From: Fastidiosibacter lacustris | Lineage (GTDB): Bacteria > Pseudomonadota > Gammaproteobacteria > Francisellales > Francisellaceae | Assembly (NCBI RefSeq): GCF_003428155.1 | Contig: NZ_QLIR01000001.1 | Coordinates: 224,558-256,557, forward strand | Direction: 5' to 3' | Length of the DNA stretch: 32,000 nucleotides | In this document: positions 5,652 to 31,895 of the stretch, one piece after another | How positions within the stretch are numbered: the first letter of the stretch is position 1 | Layout: each line of letters starts with the position of its first letter | Program-made: the position numbers and the translations under genes | The notes under the pieces: generated by a model | What the model was told of the DNA's origin: nothing | What the model saw: the letters and a program-made list of their open reading frames with translations, nothing else | The model's database searches: none

Positions 5652-5795
5652 TTGTGTTAATTAACCTTTTCTTTTAATGATAATTAAACTTTTCCAGCCC
5701 AGTATTGTTACGATAAAAGCATAAAATGTCACGCGTTTGTTTTGCTTTTTAGATGAGATTATCACATACCAGGATGACCTTACTTGAGTTAACTT

Positions 5796-6242
5796 CTAAA
5801 TGCAATTATGTTGACAGTAGTCGATGGCAGCAATCATGGCTAGCTCATAACCTTGAGCACCCATCCCTGATATGACACCATAAGCAATGTCTGAGAGATA
5901 AGAATGATGGCGAAAAAGTTCGCGTTTATAAAGATTTGATAAATGTATTTCAATAAATGGGATATGAATCGCTAACAGTGCATCTCGAATAGCAACACTG
6001 GTATGTGTATAAGCAGCTGGATTGATGATGATAAAATGAACGTTACCTTGAGCTTGTTGGATTTGATCAACGATTTCACCTTCATGGTTGGATTGAAAAC
6101 AAATACAATTCATTTTTTTCTCTTCTGTTAAAGAGCTAAGTTTTTGATTAATACTATTTAATGTTGCAGTGCCATATACATCCGTTTCACGTTGACCAAG
6201 TAAATTTAGGTTTGGTCCATGAATTACAAGAATTTTTGCCAT
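5796..6242 (-). CDS. aroQ: 3-dehydroquinate dehydratase, type II
   Basis: 148 aa. Contains [18 protein letters not shown] and [16 protein letters not shown]. Classic aroQ-accB-accC arrangement. Confidence 0.93.
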
Positions 6243-24593: not shown

Positions 24594-26871
24594 ATGGAAA
24601 ATATTAGAAATTATTATGCTCACTCAGGAAACTTGATGGACAAATCAGATTGGCAGCTATTATCTGATCATTTGCAAACGGTGGCTGATATAGCTTGGCA
24701 TAATGCACGCTATACTGGTTGCGAAGGACTTGCTGCTTTGGCTGGTTTGCTCCATGACTTAGGAAAATATACCAAAGAGTTTCAAGCACGTTTGGAAGGT
24801 TCAAGCAGAAAAGTTGATCATGCAACTGCGGGAGCAAAAATTGCAGCAGAAATTTTGCCAGATAAGTTGTTGAACGGTTTCCCTTTCTTTAAGTTAATTG
24901 CCTATGCAATCGCGGGACACCATGCAGGGCTTGCTAATGGCATAGATGAGGGTGATGGTAGAAGCTGTTTAAAGGATCGCTTAAGTCAAAACTTTGGCAA
25001 AGAATTATGTGTATTGGATGAGTTAGCATGGAAAAGTGCATTGCAACTACCATCAAGAGAATCTCTTACACTAAAGATTAAACTACATCCAGATACTGAC
25101 TTTCATGGCTTTCAATATGCTTTTTTGATTCGCATGATTTTTTCTTGTTTGGTCGATGCTGATTTTATCGATACAGATAGATTTTACAAAAAACTTAAAA
25201 ATAAACCTTGGTTAAGAGGTGAATATCCACACTTAAACGAACTTAAAATTCAACTGGATGATTATTTGGTAAGAAAACAGGAGGGGTGTGAAGATACTTT
25301 TGTTAATCAATTGCGTCATGAAATTCTTTTAAACGCTAGAAAAAAAGCACAATTATCTCCAGGATTATTTAGTCTAACCGTGCCGACAGGTGGTGGTAAA
25401 ACACTGACATCGATGGCGTTTGCTTTAGACCATGCTTTGGCACATAACATGCGCCGAGTGATCTATGTTATTCCTTTTACCAGTATTATCGAACAGAATG
25501 CAAAAGTTTTTAGAGAAGTTTTTGGTGATTTGGGAGAGTCTGCCGTTTTGGAACACCATAGCAATTTTAATGATCGCACAATTACAAATGAAGAAACTCA
25601 AGATAAGCTTAAATTGGCGATGGAAAATTGGGATATGTCTGTGATAGTAACAACTGCGGTTCAATTTTTTGAATCGCTGTTTGCGGATCGTCCTTCACGC
25701 TGCCGAAAATTGCATAATATTACAGAAAGTGTGATTATCTTGGATGAAGCACAAACGCTACCACTAAAATTTTTGCGCCCTGTGATGGCGGTAATTGATG
25801 AGTTAGCTCGAAATTATCATTGTTCAGTTGTTCTTTGTACGGCAACACAACCTGCTTTATGTCAACCAGATTTTGACAAGGGATTTGTTAATGTCAGAGA
25901 AATTGCCCCTAATCCAAGTAAGTTATTTGACGATTTAAGCTTGGTTAGTATAAGCCATTTAGGTGAATTGACAGACGATGAAATTTTAGCTCGTATGATA
26001 GATAATGAGCAAATTTTAACAATCGTCAATAATCGTCGTCATGCTCAATCGTTGTTCCAATCATTGAAAGAGCGTCAAGTAGAAGGTATTTTTCATTTGA
26101 CTACACTCATGTGCGCGATACATCGCACAAAAAAGTTAGAAATCATTCGTAAAAGACTTAAAGAGAAAAAAAACCTGTCGCGTTGTCTCAAGTTCATTAA
26201 TTGAAGCAGGGGTCGATGTTGATTTTCCTTATGTAATGCGTGCTGAGGCAGGTTTAGACTCCATAGCTCAAGCTGCAGGACGCTGTAATCGTGAACGTAA
26301 AAGGGCAAAAGAAGACAGCCACGTTTGGATTTTTAAATCACCAGATTGGCAAGTTCCACCAGAGCTAAAAAGTTTAGCGGCTGGTATGCGATCAACTTTG
26401 CGTCAAAATTTTGACAATCTGCTGGGGCAGGAAGCAATTAAGACTTATTTTTCGGAAGTCTACTGGCGCAAAGGTGCTGAGTTAGATCAAAAACAGCTTT
26501 TAAAAGACTGTAGCAATCATGCAAAAAAACTGAGTTTTCCATTTCAAAATATTGCAAGAGATTTTCTTATGATTGAAAGTTGTATGCAGCCAGTATTTAT
26601 CCAGTTTGATAATGAAGCGGAGCATTTATTGAAAGAGTTGGAGGTAACGGATGATGTAAGCCGCATATTACGTAAACTACAACCTTATATAGTGCAGATT
26701 CCAAAGCAAGGGTTTGATAGTTTGGTAGCTACTAATGCCGTACAAACGGTGGCGCCTTATCGATTTCAAGAACAGTTTTGGGTACTGATCAATCGTGATA
26801 TATATGATGATGAATGTGGTATCAGTTGGGATAATCCAACTTTTATGAAGGCTGAGAGTTCCATCTTTTGA
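24594..26871 (+). pseudogene. cas3: Type I-C Cas3 (HD nuclease + SF2 helicase), split by a +1 frameshift in an A8 run
   Basis: ORF 24594-26204 carries the HD motifs (LHDLGK, DHATAGA), helicase motif I TVPTGGGKT and motif II ILDEAQ. ORF 26236-26871, whose frame is open from 26140, continues with CRVVSSSLIEAGVDVDF and motif VI QAAGRCNRE. Removing one A from 26166-26173 joins the two as ...RLKEKK-TCRVVSS.... Confidence 0.9.
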
Positions 26872-26886
26872 GAACAATCAAAAGAA
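26862..26886 (-). promoter_or_regulatory. Predicted Cascade binding site: TTC PAM plus a 22-nt partial protospacer for the mini-array pseudo-spacer
   Basis: The minus strand reads TTC|TTTTGATTGTTCTCAAAAGATG. The pseudo-spacer is TTTTGTTTGTTATCAAATGATG.... They are identical at positions 1-22 except 6, 12 and 18. The site overlaps the cas3 stop codon (26869-26871). Its PAM edge is 7 bp upstream of the -35 hexamer at 26894. Confidence 0.7.
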
Positions 26887-26893
26887 AAAATAT

Positions 26894-26922
26894 TTGACTT
26901 AACTTATGTTTGAATTTAGAAT
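26894..26922 (+). promoter_or_regulatory. Sigma70-type promoter TTGACT-17 nt-TAGAAT
   Basis: -35 TTGACT (26894-26899), an exactly 17-nt spacer, and -10 TAGAAT (26917-26922). An A-rich UP-like tract (26880-26893) lies upstream. The promoter points toward the small ORF, the mini-array and cas5. Confidence 0.55.
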
Positions 26923-26957
26923 CCTTCTTAAGGAGTTTAAGCAGCTGGAAGTGAAAC

Positions 26958-27107
26958 ATGAAAAATTGTTGGGCGATCCATATTGAAAAAAATGAGAGTG
27001 GGAAGCTGATATTAAAATTTGGTGGACAGCTGCATTTTCCAGTAAAAACTGTAGGATGGAGTTTTGCTGCACTTTTAGTTGTAGTGGTGGGAAAGTTCTT
27101 TTTTTGA
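26958..27107 (+). CDS. Hypothetical 49-aa peptide with a hydrophobic C-terminal segment (candidate small membrane toxin or leader peptide)
   Basis: ATG at 26958 is preceded by GGAAG (26946-26950). Hand translation: MKNCWAIHIEKNESGKLILKFGGQLHFPVKTVGWSFAALLVVVVGKFFF, ending at TGA 27105-27107. It is too short for the supplied ORF track. It lies between the promoter and the mini-array. No homology is claimed. Confidence 0.4.
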   Translation: MKNCWAIHIEKNESGKLILKFGGQLHFPVKTVGWSFAALLVVVVGKFFF

Positions 27108-27133
27108 ATTTTCACCTATTCATTGCGATTGTA

Positions 27134-27221
27134 GTCGCATCTCATGTGAATGCGTGGATTGAAACTTTTGTTTGTTATCAAATGATGAGATCGCACCCCA
27201 TGCGGGTGCGTGGATAAGGAG
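27134..27221 (+). CRISPR. Degenerate two-repeat type I-C mini-array (creA/CreR-like): psiR1, a 24-nt pseudo-spacer, psiR2
   Basis: psiR1 (27134-27165) is GTCGCATCTCATGTGAATGCGTGGATTGAAAC. The pseudo-spacer (27166-27189) is TTTTGTTTGTTATCAAATGATGAG. psiR2 (27190-27221) is ATCGCACCCCATGCGGGTGCGTGGATAAGGAG. Both repeats fit the known I-C pattern GTCGC-hairpin-GCGTGGATTGAAAC and are 21/32 identical to each other. Confidence 0.85.
27155..27210 (+). ncRNA. Predicted mature crRNA-like RNA: 11-nt 5' handle, 24-nt guide, 21-nt 3' hairpin
   Basis: Boundaries come from applying the known Cas5d cleavage position (3' base of the repeat stem) to psiR1 and psiR2. The handle is UGGAUUGAAAC. The 3' hairpin is CGCACCC-CAUGC-GGGUGCG. 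Prediction only, with no expression data. Confidence 0.45.
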
Positions 27222-27227
27222 GCAGAG

Positions 27228-27908
27228 ATGGCTTATGGTATTAAGCTGCATGTGTGGGGAGAGTATGCTTGTTTTACCAGACCCGAAATGAAGGTGGAGC
27301 GCGTATCTTATGATGTAATTACGCCATCTGCGGCCAGAGGGATTTTGGAGGCAATTCACTGGAAACCCGCGATTTGTTGGGTGATTGATCGCATTCATGT
27401 GTTAAAACCTGTGCGTTTTGAAACGATTAGGCGAAACGAGTTAGGGAATTGCAAAATTTCTACCTCTAAAGTCAGTGGTGCAATGAAGCGTAAAAGTACT
27501 CAAGATTTATATTTTTTGATTGATGATGGAGATAATCGTCAACAAAGAGCAACGACACTTTTGCGTGATGTTGGTTATGTGGTTGAAGCACATTTTGAGT
27601 TAACTAATAAAGTAGGTAATGAAGATTCAGTTGGCAAGCATCTTGATATATTTAATCGCAGAGCGCGCAAAGGACAATATTTTCATCAGCCTTGCTTGGG
27701 AAATCGTGAATTCCCTGCTTATTTTTCGTTGATTGAGTCGGATGAGGATTTTCCTCTTTCTGAGTTAAGTCAAGAGACTAAAGATTTAGGTTGGATGTTG
27801 CATGATATTGATTTTGCCAATGCCGCGACCCCAAAATTCTTTCGCGCCAAATTAATAAATGGAGTGATTGATGTTCCGCCTTTTAGAACTTTGGGGGTGG
27901 TGCAATGA
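27228..27908 (+). CDS. cas5: Type I-C Cas5 (Cas5d/Cas5c), Cascade subunit and pre-crRNA endonuclease
   Basis: 226 aa from the ATG at 27228, which has a strong SD AAGGAGG (27216-27222) 5 nt upstream. The N-terminus MAYGIKLHVWGEYACFTRPEMKVERVSYDVITPSAARGILEAI is the canonical Cas5d start. The stop overlaps the cas8c ATG (ATGA). Confidence 0.93.
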   Translation: MAYGIKLHVWGEYACFTRPEMKVERVSYDVITPSAARGILEAIHWKPAICWVIDRIHVLKPVRFETIRRNELGNCKISTSKVSGAMKRKSTQDLYFLIDDGDNRQQRATTLLRDVGYVVEAHFELTNKVGNEDSVGKHLDIFNRRARKGQYFHQPCLGNREFPAYFSLIESDEDFPLSELSQETKDLGWMLHDIDFANAATPKFFRAKLINGVIDVPPFRTLGVVQ

Positions 27909-29731
27909 TTCTAACCGCTTTAACCCAATATTATAATCGACTGGCGAATACGGAAAAAGGTGCAAAAGTACCTGCTTATGGATTTAGTGAAGAAAAAATC
28001 GGCTATATTTTAGTGCTGTCTGAGTCAGGGGAGTTAGTGGATGTTGTGCCTAATTTCACCGATGAAAAAAAGCCCAAAGCAAAATTAATGAGCGTACCAT
28101 GCCCAGAAAAAAGAACATCAGGTATTAAGCCTAACTTTTTGTGGGATAAAACGGCATATGTTTTAGGTGTCTCACTGCCAAAAGACAAAAAAAGTGAATC
28201 AACGTTTGAGCTATCGCTACCTAATTTCGAGGCTTTTAAGAGCTATCATCTCAAATTATTAAAAAATCAAGAAGAGAAAGGTCTAAAGGCATTGTCCAAT
28301 TTTTTACAAAATTGGCAACCAGAAGAATTTGAAAGTTCATTGTGTACACCTGAAATTTTGGATGCCAACGTGATATTTCAATTGGATGGTGTTAGGCAAT
28401 ACATTCACGAGTCCCAATTGGCTAAGGCAATTTGGGCGAATCAACTGAAATCAGATGATGCATCTGATGATGCTATGTGTCTGATAACAGGTACTCAAAC
28501 GCCTATTTCAAGATTGCACCCAGCAATTAAAGGTGTCTCTGGTGGACAAAGCTCCGGAGTGTCGATTGTTTCCTTTAATAAAGAATCATTTGAATCTTTT
28601 GGCAAGAAACAAGGTGATAATGCACCAGTTTCTGTACAAGCTGCTTTTGCCTATACGACTGCCTTAAACTACCTATTACGCGACGAAAATAATCAAGTTA
28701 TCAGCTTGGGTGATACTAGCGTTGTTTTCTGGGCATTAGCTAAAAAAGAAGAACAGGCAAAAAAAGTAGAATCTTTCTTTATGATGGGGTTTAATCCGCC
28801 ATCACCTACCGATGACAGTGAAACAGTTCAATTGAATGCTGAGTTAGAGAAGTTTACTAAAGGTCGACCCTTGGCAGAGATTGATCCTGAGCTTGATCCT
28901 GACACCCAGTTCTTTATTTTGGGATTGACGCCTAATGCAGCGCGTCTTTCGATTCGTTTTTGGTTACAAACTAGTTTTGGTCAGATTCAGCAAAGACTTG
29001 CTGAGCATTTTCAAGATTTAGCCTTAGCTCCTTTACCTTGGAAAACACCACCATCTATTTGGCGTCTTTTATTACAGCTAAGTCCTCATCGTGAAGGGCA
29101 GAAAAGTAAGATAGATGATGTCCCAGTACATTTGGCTGGAGAGTTAATGCGTTCTATTTTGACGGGGCAGCGTTATCCAAGATCTATTATTGCACAAATT
29201 TTATCTAGATTTAGAGCTGATGGAGATATTGGGGGTTTAAGAATTGCTATGGTAAAAGCTGTTTTGCAAAGAGAATTTAGGAAAAATTTGATAACAGAGG
29301 AGATCCCTATGAGTTTAGATGAGTCAAATACCAATCAAGCGTATTTGCTTGGCAGGCTTTTTGCCGTGTTAGAGAATATACAGGAAAGAGCTTTGGGTGA
29401 TAAGTTGAATGCTACGATTGCTGATAAATACTATGCTTCAGCCTCAACTGTGCCATATTCAGTTTATCCGCGATTACTATCAGGAAGCAAACATCACTTG
29501 TCTAAAGTTCGCAAAGATAAACCAAAGTTAGCAGTCTATTTGGAAAATAGGCTTGGTCAAATTATGACACAATTACCAACAGAATTCCCACGCCATTTTT
29601 CTATCGAAAATCAAGGGCGTTTTTCGATTGGCTATTATCAGCAAAAGTTCACCCCCTCTAAAGAAAAAGAAGATCCAAAAGACAAAGAAGATCCAACTAA
29701 GTCTATTGATGAAACACAAGGAGTAGAATAA
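27905..29731 (+). CDS. cas8c: Type I-C large subunit Cas8c (Csd1)
   Basis: 608 aa. Sits between cas5 and cas7. The N-terminus MILTALTQYYNRL and the C-terminal AYLLGRLFAVLE region are typical of Csd1. Confidence 0.92.
   Translation: MILTALTQYYNRLANTEKGAKVPAYGFSEEKIGYILVLSESGELVDVVPNFTDEKKPKAKLMSVPCPEKRTSGIKPNFLWDKTAYVLGVSLPKDKKSESTFELSLPNFEAFKSYHLKLLKNQEEKGLKALSNFLQNWQPEEFESSLCTPEILDANVIFQLDGVRQYIHESQLAKAIWANQLKSDDASDDAMCLITGTQTPISRLHPAIKGVSGGQSSGVSIVSFNKESFESFGKKQGDNAPVSVQAAFAYTTALNYLLRDENNQVISLGDTSVVFWALAKKEEQAKKVESFFMMGFNPPSPTDDSETVQLNAELEKFTKGRPLAEIDPELDPDTQFFILGLTPNAARLSIRFWLQTSFGQIQQRLAEHFQDLALAPLPWKTPPSIWRLLLQLSPHREGQKSKIDDVPVHLAGELMRSILTGQRYPRSIIAQILSRFRADGDIGGLRIAMVKAVLQREFRKNLITEEIPMSLDESNTNQAYLLGRLFAVLENIQERALGDKLNATIADKYYASASTVPYSVYPRLLSGSKHHLSKVRKDKPKLAVYLENRLGQIMTQLPTEFPRHFSIENQGRFSIGYYQQKFTPSKEKEDPKDKEDPTKSIDETQGVE
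29309..29731 (+). CDS. cas11c: Cas11c small subunit from an internal in-frame start within cas8c
   Basis: In-frame ATG at 29309, preceded by GAGGAG (29297-29302) with 6-nt spacing. It yields 140 aa starting MSLDESNTNQAYLLGRLFAVLE. Internal translation of Cas11 from cas8c is established for type I-C. Confidence 0.6.
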   Translation: MSLDESNTNQAYLLGRLFAVLENIQERALGDKLNATIADKYYASASTVPYSVYPRLLSGSKHHLSKVRKDKPKLAVYLENRLGQIMTQLPTEFPRHFSIENQGRFSIGYYQQKFTPSKEKEDPKDKEDPTKSIDETQGVE

Positions 29732-30601
29732 ATGACTATCCAACATCGTTATGAATTTGTTTATTTTTTTGATGTCACTAATGGTAATCCAAATGGCGAT
29801 CCTGATGCAGGAAATATGCCTCGTCTTGATCCTGAATCTAGCAAAGGATTAGTGACGGATGTCAGTTTAAAACGTAAAATCCGTAACTACATTCAGTTTA
29901 GTAATGAAAATAAGCCTGGCTATGACATTTATGTGCAAGAAAAAAGTATATTAAATCAGCAGAATCAGAAAGCTTATGATGCTTTAGAAATTAAAGCAGA
30001 ACCTAAAAAGTTACCAAAAGATCAGGAAAAAGCTAAAGCTATTACTGATTGGATGTGTGCTAATTTCTTTGACGTTCGCGCTTTTGGTGCAGTCATGACA
30101 ACGGAAGTGAATTCAGGTCAGGTGCGCGGACCATTTCAGTTAGCATTTGCAAAATCAATTGATCCAATTATTCCTTTGGAGATCTCTATTACGCGAATGG
30201 CGGTGACGAATGAGAAAGATTTAGAAAAAGAACGTACGATTGGACGCAAACATATTGTGCCTTATGGTTTATATCGTGTACATGGTTTTATTTCAGCAAA
30301 ACTAGCAGAAAAAACAGGGTTTTCTGAAAGTGATTTAAGTAAATTGTGGAAAGCCTTAGAAATGATGTTTGAACACGATCATTCTGCTGCTCGTGGTGAG
30401 ATGTCAGCACGTAAGTTGATTGTATTTAAACATCAGGATATGCTAGGGAATGCTCCAGCGTACAAGTTATTTAATCGTGTTACTGTTGAGCGTGTGAAAG
30501 GTGAATTAGGTACGCCAGCCAGTGCATTTGATGATTATGTAATTCATTTGGATACGTCAGGCTTAGAGACTTTAGGAGTTGAAGCGAGAGAGCTTTTTTA
30601 A
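29732..30601 (+). CDS. cas7: Type I-C Cas7 (Csd2) backbone subunit
   Basis: 289 aa. Contains FDVTNGNPNGDPDAGNMPR and DVRAFGAVMT, which are typical Csd2/Cas7 motifs. Confidence 0.93.
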   Translation: MTIQHRYEFVYFFDVTNGNPNGDPDAGNMPRLDPESSKGLVTDVSLKRKIRNYIQFSNENKPGYDIYVQEKSILNQQNQKAYDALEIKAEPKKLPKDQEKAKAITDWMCANFFDVRAFGAVMTTEVNSGQVRGPFQLAFAKSIDPIIPLEISITRMAVTNEKDLEKERTIGRKHIVPYGLYRVHGFISAKLAEKTGFSESDLSKLWKALEMMFEHDHSAARGEMSARKLIVFKHQDMLGNAPAYKLFNRVTVERVKGELGTPASAFDDYVIHLDTSGLETLGVEARELF

Positions 30602-30608
30602 CTGTGTT

Positions 30609-31223
30609 ATGTCGGATATATTAATCTCCCTTTCCGCCCTCCAGCACTATGCCTTTTGTCCTAGGCAATGTGCGCTTATTCACAATGAGCAAGTGTGGTC
30701 AGAGAATTGGTTGACCGCTCAAGGGCAGCAATTACATCAGCGTGTTGATAGTGGCGTGCCTGAAACACGCAAAGGGATTCGTTATGAGCGAGCTGTGCGT
30801 GTTTCAGCACCTAAACTGGGCTTAGTTGGTAAGCTTGATCTTATTGAAGTGGATATTAAAACAGGTATTTGTTTTCCAGTGGAATATAAACGTGGCAAGC
30901 CAAAACAAGATCATATCGATCTTATTCAGTTATGTGCGCAAGTATTGTGCCTTGAGGAGATGCTTAAACTGAGCATTAATCATGTTGCAATGTGGTATTG
31001 GCAGACAAAGCATCGCATTGAGGTTGTATTAACGCAAAGCTTGCGTGATGAAACGCTGACTATAATTGAAAAAACAAGGATGTTACTGGAAAGTGGGATG
31101 ACTCCTAAAGCCAAATATGAGAAAAAGTGTGATGCCTGTTCATTATACGATTTGTGTAACCCAAAACTTATGTTTAAAGACAAAAGCAAAGTATATGTGA
31201 ACATGCTTTTTCAGGAGGGATAG
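30609..31223 (+). CDS. cas4: Cas4 RecB-like exonuclease
   Basis: 204 aa from the ATG at 30609. Contains LQHYAFCPRQCAL and the C-terminal Cys cluster CDACSLYDLC (Fe-S). The DxK-type core reads VGKLDLIEV..EYKRGK. Confidence 0.9.
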   Translation: MSDILISLSALQHYAFCPRQCALIHNEQVWSENWLTAQGQQLHQRVDSGVPETRKGIRYERAVRVSAPKLGLVGKLDLIEVDIKTGICFPVEYKRGKPKQDHIDLIQLCAQVLCLEEMLKLSINHVAMWYWQTKHRIEVVLTQSLRDETLTIIEKTRMLLESGMTPKAKYEKKCDACSLYDLCNPKLMFKDKSKVYVNMLFQEG

Positions 31224-31226
31224 GCA

Positions 31227-31895
31227 TTGAAAAAATTACAAAACACACTCTATATCACCAAACAAGGCGCTTATTTGCACAAGGAACGTGAGACACTGGT
31301 CATTGAAGTTGAAAAGGAAAAAGCAATGCAGTTGCCTATTCATGCAATTCAGGCGATTTATTGCTTTGGTAATGTTATGGTATCACCTTTTTTGCTGGGA
31401 TTTTGTGGTGAGAATAATGTCCATTTGGCATTTTTTACTGAATATGGTCGTTTTCTTGGGCGTTTACATGGCACACAAAGTGGTAATATCTTGTTAAGGA
31501 AAGCACAATATAAAATTGCAGAAACTGATCCTGTACCTATTGCCAGAAATATAATTGCGGCAAAGCTTAATTCTTCACGAGCGGTATTATATCGCAGGTT
31601 ACGCAATCATGGGGAAAATAAAGCGGTTGAAAATGCAGTTGAGCAAATAAGTTATACTATCAGGCGCTTGCAAAAGACAGAAACTTTGGAGGCAAATTTA
31701 GGTTTAGAAGGTGAGGCTGCCTCCGTGTATTTTAGTGTTTTTAATGAATTGATTTTATCTGCTGTACAACCTGATTTTACTTTCGATATACGTAGTCGCA
31801 GACCTCCGTTGGATCCTGTTAATGCTATGCTATCATTTTTATATAGTGTCGTTGGAAATGATATTAGAGTTCCTTCCAAACCGTATTTAATCTAG
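31227..31895 (+). pseudogene. cas1: Cas1, 3'-truncated; native sequence ends near 31866
   Basis: TTG start after AGGAGGGA. The first ~213 aa are Cas1-like (TLYITKQGAYLHKERETLVIE, PPLDPVNAMLSFLYS). The frame then runs into unrelated sequence and stops at 222 aa, whereas I-C Cas1 proteins are typically ~340 aa. The catalytic C-terminal half is absent. Confidence 0.85.

Follow-up and report, generated by a model that had tools for sequence, protein, structure and literature searches.

Type I-C is among the commonest subtypes of CRISPR systems (named for short palindromic repeats that are clustered and regularly interspaced) and is used in genome editing, and its regulation is poorly known. The type I-C operon in a 32,000-nucleotide (nt) stretch of Fastidiosibacter lacustris DNA (hereafter the window) raises a question of this kind: why do two degenerate CRISPR repeats with a short spacer-like sequence between them stand inside the operon, between cas3 and cas5? 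An earlier note, made from the sequence alone, had described the element at 27134-27221 as a CreA/CreR-type mini-array for a single CRISPR RNA (crRNA)-like molecule. Our analysis supports that description through a target that is flanked by a protospacer-adjacent motif (PAM) and lies beside a predicted promoter of the same locus. Judged from its sequence, the element is probably a type I-C gene for a crRNA-like regulatory RNA of the CreR/CreA class, by which Cascade would repress its own operon. The target, a conserved open reading frame (ORF) of 49 amino acids (aa) that we call ORF49, and published predictions of creA-like elements in I-C loci are additions to the earlier note.

Two degenerate type I-C repeats enclose a short spacer

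The I-C repeat unit comprises 32 nt: GTCGC, a G+C-rich hairpin with a 7-base-pair (bp) stem and a 5-nt loop, and then GCGTGGATTGAAAC, a 14-mer that occurs exactly once in the window. In the upstream repeat, psiR1, the 11-nt handle TGGATTGAAAC (27155-27165) is intact and the stem is reduced to 5 bp (CGCAT/ATGCG). The downstream repeat, psiR2, forms a perfect 7-bp stem with a 5-nt loop, which supplies a 21-nt 3′ handle (27190-27210), and lacks the last 6 nt of the repeat, in whose place stands AAGGAGG, the Shine-Dalgarno sequence of cas5. The stems, the handles and the missing 6 nt had been given in the earlier note, and on re-reading the sequence they hold, as do its coordinates and base counts, including the 56-nt span 27155-27210. 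Its placement of the element also stands: the genes on either side proved to be cas3 and cas5c, both part of a type I-C operon.

We compared both elements with array repeats of relatives. A covariance model of 31 array repeats from other I-C loci, run unfiltered on both strands of the window, recovered psiR1 over its full length (33.6 bits, E = 1.5e-7) and psiR2 at 27192-27215 (29.6 bits, E = 2.2e-6, model positions 3-26), in agreement with the claim that both are I-C-type repeats; no third significant match was found in the window, the next best having E = 1. Of the 26 positions of psiR2, 23 agree with the array repeat of L089, a related locus. The Rfam scan returned only CRISPR-DR9, below threshold, at 27131-27165 (E = 0.93). 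Folding of the whole region revealed no stability beyond that of shuffled sequences (z = -0.72); in the fold, the two local hairpins alone matter.

Processing by Cas5d/Cas5c, reportedly described by Nam et al. and by Garside et al. in 2012, leaves an 11-nt 5′ handle and a 21-nt 3′ handle, and by this rule the mini-array would give rise to a 56-nt mature RNA. The sequence holds the parts for exactly one crRNA, namely a handle, a spacer and a hairpin handle. By these sequence features it is not an immune array: psiR1 differs from psiR2, psiR2 is shortened, the spacer is 24 nt long and matches its own locus, and the element precedes cas5. Mini-array spacers measure 23-29 nt, compared with 33-35 nt for array spacers in related loci. 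No immune CRISPR array was found within the window.

The spacer matches a PAM-flanked site beside a predicted promoter

A position-by-position comparison of the 24-nt spacer with both strands of the whole window singled out 26883-26860 on the minus strand, identical at 19 of 24 positions, with mismatches only at 6, 12, 18, 23 and 24. In Cascade, Cas7 flips out the bases at positions 6, 12 and 18, which stay unpaired; because the mismatches at 6, 12 and 18 fall on these flipped bases, all 19 pairing positions within 1-22 match. The longest pairing run at any TTC site was 10 for 2000 shuffled spacers and 12 for 2000 random 24-mers from the window, versus 19 for the spacer itself. The site is flanked by TTC, and TTC/TTY is the PAM of I-C systems (PMC8406640; 10.1101/2023.08.05.552134).

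Seven nt separate this PAM from the -35 box of a putative sigma-70-type promoter, which agrees with the consensus at 10 of 12 positions and is the sole strong site in 26200-27400. Its -35 box, TTGACT, is invariant in an alignment with the closest relatives (L093-L096). ORF49, the mini-array and cas5-cas8c-cas7 follow the promoter in that order, with no terminator predicted between it and cas5, and the matched site is located ~250 bases upstream of the mini-array. Thus, as in CreR/CreA elements, degenerate repeat-like sequences flank a spacer-like sequence within a cas locus, and, read from its PAM-proximal end, the spacer complements a PAM-flanked site beside a predicted promoter of the locus.

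Another promoter-like sequence, TTGAAA-16-AATGAT (27159-27186), is made up of the end of psiR1 and the A+T-rich spacer; its start would fall inside psiR2 and yield a cas5 mRNA without the guide RNA. No viral mimics (Cracr) of the window spacer were found, and eight viral matches to ATTGAAACTTTTGNTTGTT, all without the upstream repeat part, were rejected as chance.

Spacer and target covary between lineages

The closest relatives, L093-L096 (88% Cas5 identity), share the entire 360-nt module, with the target, TTGACT, a 49-aa ORF, psiR1, the spacer and psiR2. Their spacer is unlike that of the window and matches a TTC-flanked site of their own. Likewise, the more distant carriers, L097-L100 and L229, have ORF49 between cas3 and the mini-array plus cas5, each with its own spacer and its own upstream match. 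The pairs of spacer and TTC-flanked site are TTTTGTTTGTTATC and TTTTGATTGTTCTC in the window, TTTGTATGTTTTGT and TTTGTATGTTTAGT in L093 (with a similar spacer and site in L096), TTTTAACTATTTTT and TTTTAACTATTATT in L097, TGTCAAATGTTAGC and TGTTAAATGTTAGC in L098, and TATTAAATGTTTTT and TATTATATTTTATT in L229. Six lineages with five clearly different seeds are thus all self-matching, and we therefore conclude that guide and target covary, staying matched through evolution as expected of CreR/CreA elements. With this, the mini-array displays all of the features by which that class is recognized at the sequence level. The identity of the repeats, the PAM-flanked match, the geometry of the promoter, and the conservation and covariation of the module are properties of the sequences as they stand.

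The covarying target bears on a different explanation of the mini-array, in which it acts only in cis as an RNA processing site, Cas5c cuts serving to separate the ORF49 and cas5 mRNAs or to adjust how stable they are, with no targeting of DNA. psiR2 is fused to the cas5 ribosome-binding site, such that a cleaved cas5 mRNA would start 5 nt before the Shine-Dalgarno sequence, in keeping with such a role. However, a PAM-flanked, covarying target beside a promoter would be left unexplained, and we regard this explanation as very unlikely.

Cas5 relatives at 85-87% identity (L081, L082, L085 and L089-L092), which include Thiomicrorhabdus sp. Kp2 and several metagenomic contigs, have no mini-array, and their cas3-cas5 gap is 20-56 nt. 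In L093, the mini-array stands beside a genuine array, and the array repeat, downstream of cas2, resembles L093 psiR2.

Mini-arrays precede cas5 in about a third of the type I-C loci surveyed

The earlier note had proposed a scan of the cas3-cas5 gaps of other I-C loci. We surveyed 80 I-C loci, one genome per species, for sequences upstream of cas5 that differ from GTGGATTGAAAC at ≤2 positions. Such a match to the 3′ end of the repeat was present in 26 of the 80 loci, at a distance of 53-272 nt from cas5, whereas we calculate ~1 match by chance over all 80; in each case, a short spacer and a hairpin come next, and then the ribosome-binding site of cas5. For 16 of the 26 loci, the cas3-cas5 gap contains a TTC-flanked site that partially matches the spacer, mostly on the minus strand and in many cases mismatched at positions 6 and/or 12, and in two others (L011 and L025) the match is upstream of cas3; no target was found in the remaining 8. 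The PAM is often immediately next to the -35 box in loci with a predicted promoter (L020, L029 and L059). Taken together, these counts suggest that about a third of I-C loci hold a self-targeting guide before cas5.

The two matches before cas3, at 3564-3587 in L011 (a metagenome-assembled genome (MAG) of an uncultured Neisseria sp.) and at 4148-4171 in L025 (a MAG of an uncultured Propionivibrio sp.), are TTC-flanked and lie ~1.8 kb upstream, which suggests control of a whole-operon promoter.

We aligned the stems of 19 repeat-like elements, comprising 18 psiR copies upstream of cas5 and one L093 array repeat. In this alignment, 97.5% of stem cells are paired and both sides have changed in 5 of the 7 pairs; the pairing figure is favored by the method, because the alignment was fitted to the covariance model.

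These data also address the alternative that the element serves no function, being either what a decaying old CRISPR array has left behind or a stray repeat that became inserted. Its repeats are degenerate, cas3 and cas1 of the window look damaged, and close relatives do without it, as a remnant would lead one to expect. Yet the spacer has a PAM-bearing match with mismatches at flipped positions, spacer and target covary between lineages, compensatory changes preserve handle and hairpin, and roughly a third of I-C loci have such an element. A remnant is therefore disfavored already, and we consider it most improbable. Two outcomes that the earlier note had named as fatal to its proposal, a true repeat unrelated to the element and a decaying remnant with no conserved handle or hairpin, were thus not borne out: the repeats fall in the I-C family, the true repeat of L093 is related to psiR2, and the handle and hairpin are conserved in homologous loci.

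A proposed circuit for Cascade autoregulation

In the mechanism that we propose, the promoter would transcribe ORF49, the mini-array and cas5-cas8c-cas7 as a single unit. Cas5c would cut psiR1 and psiR2 at the 3′ base of their hairpins, releasing the 56-nt RNA with its 11-nt handle, 24-nt spacer and 21-nt hairpin handle, and this RNA would assemble with Cas5, Cas8c, Cas7 and Cas11 into a shortened Cascade. By reading the TTC PAM and pairing with 26860-26883, the complex would place Cas8c against the -35 box and block RNA polymerase. The outcome would be negative feedback on the Cascade genes, the guide and ORF49, and loss or inhibition of Cascade would free the promoter. The target should remain uncut, because a 24-nt spacer cannot form a full 35-nt R-loop, without which I-C Cas3 is not recruited (10.1101/2023.08.05.552134).

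Several observations weigh against this reading. The predicted promoter is a consensus match only, and the -10 box of the relatives is weak (TAATGT). The Cascade site, at approximately -43 to -70, is upstream of the -35 box and does not cover it; repression must therefore come from steric occlusion by the PAM-side subunits. Efficient Cas5c cleavage at psiR1 is not assured, because its stem has only 5 Watson-Crick pairs. The module is dispensable for I-C function, because relatives with 85-87% identical Cas5 lack it, and the circuit may sit in a decaying system, because cas3 appears frameshifted and cas1 is truncated. Finally, we infer processing, binding, repression and the absence of cleavage from the sequence, and with them the assembly of I-C Cascade on a 24-nt spacer without recruitment of Cas3.

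A conserved small gene lies between the promoter and the mini-array

The first gene past the targeted promoter is ORF49, whose product combines a polar N-terminal part with a hydrophobic C-terminal helix. Homologues occupy the same position in five other lineages, and in all six the family was seen only between cas3 and the mini-array plus cas5. Its members have 49-52 aa, are 29-52% identical to that of the window and share a conserved Shine-Dalgarno sequence; residues E10, K11, K16, F21, G22 and G23 are invariant. The AlphaFold2 model, computed from a shallow alignment, contains three short strands at 7-26 and a helix at 29-48, the helix with a predicted local distance difference test (pLDDT) score of ~80. 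ORF49 is a predicted tail-anchored membrane protein and a candidate CRISPR-repressed toxin or cargo gene. The association of the family with a mini-array appears not to have been described before.

ORF49 matched no family in Pfam, NCBIfam, PADLOC or PHROGs. Although a word-index search with the window peptide alone returned no candidates, the distant members (P0124, P0125 and P0129) were found with an alignment-based profile. Among metagenomes, a protein-pattern scan confirmed no further relatives, and the at least 120 matches to a degenerate DNA pattern were rejected as chance.

Small ORFs that encode a hydrophobic stretch and are unrelated to ORF49 end at psiR1 in other I-C loci with a mini-array. 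Tested against dinucleotide shuffles in 14 loci without ORF49, the per-locus p values were mostly <0.1 (Fisher combination, ~5e-6). Such ORFs lie between the Cascade target and psiR1 in L016, L030, L043, L031, L029, L059 and L020 (~5700-5920 in each), in loci that include Delftia, Sinimarinibacterium and Candidimonas. Only the L016 and L043 peptides, from Delftia and Sinimarinibacterium, proved to be mutually related (phmmer E = 1e-3). We also considered whether the small ORFs of Delftia, Sinimarinibacterium and Candidimonas are homologous to ORF49, and dropped the idea; the first alignment, of four sequences, had been hand-picked, and leave-one-out and profile-profile tests gave no support.

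What, then, is the main function of the circuit? One answer, nested in the autoregulatory reading and adding one claim to it, is a guard of the CreTA/CrePA type, in which Cascade and the mini-array RNA silence the promoter of ORF49, a membrane toxin. Loss or inhibition of Cascade by mutation, an anti-CRISPR (Acr) or an RNA anti-CRISPR (Racr) would free the toxin and stop or kill the cell, making it addicted to cas5-cas8c-cas7. The position of ORF49 directly past the targeted promoter fits this answer, as do the conserved length of its family and its strict linkage to the module. The same holds for its model, a short beta-sheet plus a 20-residue hydrophobic helix similar in size and hydrophobicity to type I toxin peptides, and for the unrelated hydrophobic ORFs at the same position in other loci. 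There is also a precedent in creP, the gene of a 103-aa protein toxin that lies beside creA, between cas3 and csy1, in A. baylyi. In the window, damage is seen in cas3 and cas1, which repression does not need, whereas cas5, cas8c and cas7 have stayed intact, and L098-L100 have no adjacent cas4-cas1-cas2. However, ORF49 would be co-transcribed with the cas genes that it guards, such that some expression must be tolerated, and no separate creA promoter is predicted, although characterized creA genes have their own. Moreover, ORF49 matches no toxin family in the four libraries, its homology to the small ORFs of other lineages is undetectable, the cas3 frameshift, within a homopolymer, may have arisen in sequencing, and toxicity is a candidate role only. 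That ORF49 is a toxin, and the module such a guard, we consider possible, though somewhat short of probable.

Alternatively, the circuit could be a CreR standing alone, which merely tunes the level of Cascade, with ORF49 a harmless co-regulated membrane protein or leader peptide. Expression of cas5-cas8c-cas7 must come from the targeted promoter, and Liu et al. report many creA-like elements, some of them from I-C, whose targets adjoin the effector promoter and which have no toxin. On the other hand, ORF49 has kept its length and motifs at 29-52% identity together with its strict linkage to the mini-array, and this conservation argues that a protein function is tied to the circuit. We rate this explanation, too, as a serious possibility, held tentatively.

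More broadly, many I-C cas3-cas5 gaps might be three-part guards, each with a Cascade-repressed promoter, a small tail-anchored membrane-peptide toxin and a Cas5c-processed crRNA-like antitoxin, co-transcribed with the Cascade genes; the toxin would be ORF49 in the window and unrelated hydrophobic peptides in other lineages. We advance this generalization as speculative, and rather doubtful at present.

Comparison with known regulatory mini-arrays

CreR/CreA circuits operate in subtypes I-B, I-E, I-F and V-A (10.1101/2023.03.10.532045; 10.1101/2023.03.03.530964; 10.1101/2024.01.05.574328; 10.1101/2024.10.29.618823). The CreR elements of I-B, I-E and V-A (Liu et al. 2023, 10.1101/2023.03.10.532045) resemble that of the window in being degenerate mini-CRISPRs inside a cas locus, with a spacer that matches a PAM-flanked site at the effector promoter and predicted autorepression without cleavage. 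In contrast to these, the window element belongs to subtype I-C, has Cas5c as its predicted processing enzyme, lies within the operon that it would regulate, joined to the ribosome-binding site of cas5, and is separated from the promoter by the conserved 49-aa gene; its complementarity spans nearly the whole 24-nt spacer, compared with ~11 nt for CreR.

The CreTA systems of Haloarcula hispanica (I-B) and Acinetobacter (I-F) and CrePA of A. baylyi ADP1 (I-F) share with the window two divergent repeat-like sequences around a short spacer, and a small gene between cas3 and the Cascade genes that is the first after the targeted promoter. CrePA establishes that the toxin can be a protein (10.1101/2024.01.05.574328). 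The known CreTA/CrePA toxins are either small RNAs or a protein of 103 aa with a KilAC domain, whereas ORF49 is unrelated to these, a 49-aa predicted tail-anchored membrane peptide. Furthermore, characterized creA and creT or creP genes have separate promoters, whereas in the window ORF49, the mini-array and the cas genes appear to depend on a single promoter.

The I-F1 mini-array of Pseudomonas aeruginosa YL84 (Shmakov et al. 2023, 10.1101/2023.03.03.530964) likewise has a nearly complete match across a shortened spacer, with mismatches at 6 and 12, and a target in the Cascade promoter region, and its repression requires Cascade and not Cas3. It differs in subtype, in its Cas6f processing and CC PAM, in being reportedly transcribed opposite to cas3, and in that no small-protein gene like ORF49 is described for it. 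The main text of that study does not mention I-C.

Elements of this kind are already known, and I-C cases have been predicted earlier and not characterized. Liu et al. (10.1101/2023.03.10.532045) found creA-like elements in I-C loci manually, and I-C CreR elements of Neisseria sicca are named as mimicked by viral Cracr arrays (10.1101/2024.10.29.618823). The N. sicca elements have the same subtype and the same predicted role as the window element, and show that I-C regulators are already in curated collections; for the window spacer, no viral mimic was found. No experimentally characterized I-C CreR/CreA case was found in the searchable literature.

Type I toxins such as Hok, TisB and Fst are, like ORF49, shorter than 60 aa with one hydrophobic helix. 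ORF49 differs from them in its lack of similarity to any library family, in the C-terminal placement of its helix after a conserved polar part of 28 residues, and in its control, which would be transcriptional through Cascade and not by antisense RNA.

Against this background, the window offers an unusually clean example, with a full match save for the flipped positions, a clear predicted promoter and six covarying lineages. If the circuit works, it would provide a compact and testable model of I-C Cascade autoregulation and a natural design for short non-cleaving guides, and ORF49 would hint at a potentially new class of membrane toxins that CRISPR represses and that act against anti-CRISPRs. 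Should three-part guards exist, this would be the first CreTA-type module in I-C and the first with a membrane-peptide toxin, and would explain why Cascade genes persist where cas3 or adaptation genes are lost. For annotation, the module adds a protein that is in none of the four family libraries and a mini-array that falls in no Rfam family at threshold.

The cas operon of the window

Family-model matches identify the genes from cas3 to cas1 as a type I-C operon (Table 1). The product of cas5c, 100% identical to the Cas5c of Fastidiosibacter lacustris, is the pre-crRNA endonuclease as well as a Cascade subunit.

Table 1. Features of the type I-C locus, in window coordinates.
Feature	Position	Strand	Description
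cas3	24594-26871	+	split by a frameshift in an A-run at ~26166-26176
Protospacer-like target of the mini-array spacer	26860-26883	-	TTTTGATTGTTCTCAAAAGATGGA; overlaps the last 4 cas3 codons
PAM	26884-26886	-	5'-TTC-3' (GAA on plus strand)
Putative sigma-70-type promoter	26894-26922	+	TTGACT-17-TAGAAT; predicted start ~26929
ORF49	26958-27107	+	49 aa, MKNCWAIHIEKNESGKLILKFGGQLHFPVKTVGWSFAALLVVVVGKFFF
psiR1	27134-27165	+	degenerate I-C repeat, GTCGCATCTCATGTGAATGCGTGGATTGAAAC; hairpin weakened
Predicted mature crRNA-like RNA	27155-27210	+	56 nt, by the Cas5d/Cas5c handle rule
Spacer-like sequence	27166-27189	+	24 nt, TTTTGTTTGTTATCAAATGATGAG
psiR2	27190-27215	+	aTCGCACCCCATGCGGGTGCGTGGAT, the first 26 nt of an I-C repeat
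cas5c	27216-27908	+	includes Shine-Dalgarno AAGGAGG (27216-27222); ATG at 27228; TIGR01876, E = 4e-52
cas8c	27905-29731	+	full length; TIGR01863, E = 2e-167
cas7	29732-30601	+	full length; TIGR02589, E = 3e-116
cas4	30579-31223	+	family-model match
cas1	31227-31895	+	truncated; model positions 1-216 of 340

The two halves of cas3 are 71-73% identical to an intact 756-aa Cas3. They form ORFs of 536 and 211 aa, divided by a one-base frameshift in the A run aaagagaaaaaaaacctg (window 26160-26240), and the 21 residues between the two Cas3 alignments are encoded in the second frame. The frameshift may be genuine, as decay or phase variation, or it may be a sequencing error in the homopolymer.

Beyond the truncated cas1, the sequence (to 32000) is unrelated and opens a new ORF, MRWETINKLAADEFRRLTGVKK, from 31934, consistent with an insertion; it gave no match to an insertion sequence (IS) family, a plasmid or NCBIfam, and has no second copy in the window.

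Upstream of cas3, most close relatives (L081, L082, L089-L092, L093 and L229) carry a gene for a WYL-domain regulator, whether or not they also have the mini-array module; the window has no WYL gene there and instead a YigZ gene on the opposite strand. A clean anti-correlation between module and WYL regulator was ruled out, since L093 and L229 carry both.

In L098-L100, cas3, ORF49, the mini-array and cas5-cas8c-cas7 are followed by RhuM and RelB/ParE genes (from the end of cas7 to ~10000) in place of cas4-cas1-cas2. L093-L096 have an additional ORF of 74-91 aa between cas7 and cas4 (7704-7928 in L093), with no Pfam match; the window does not have this ORF, and cas7 and cas4 overlap there.

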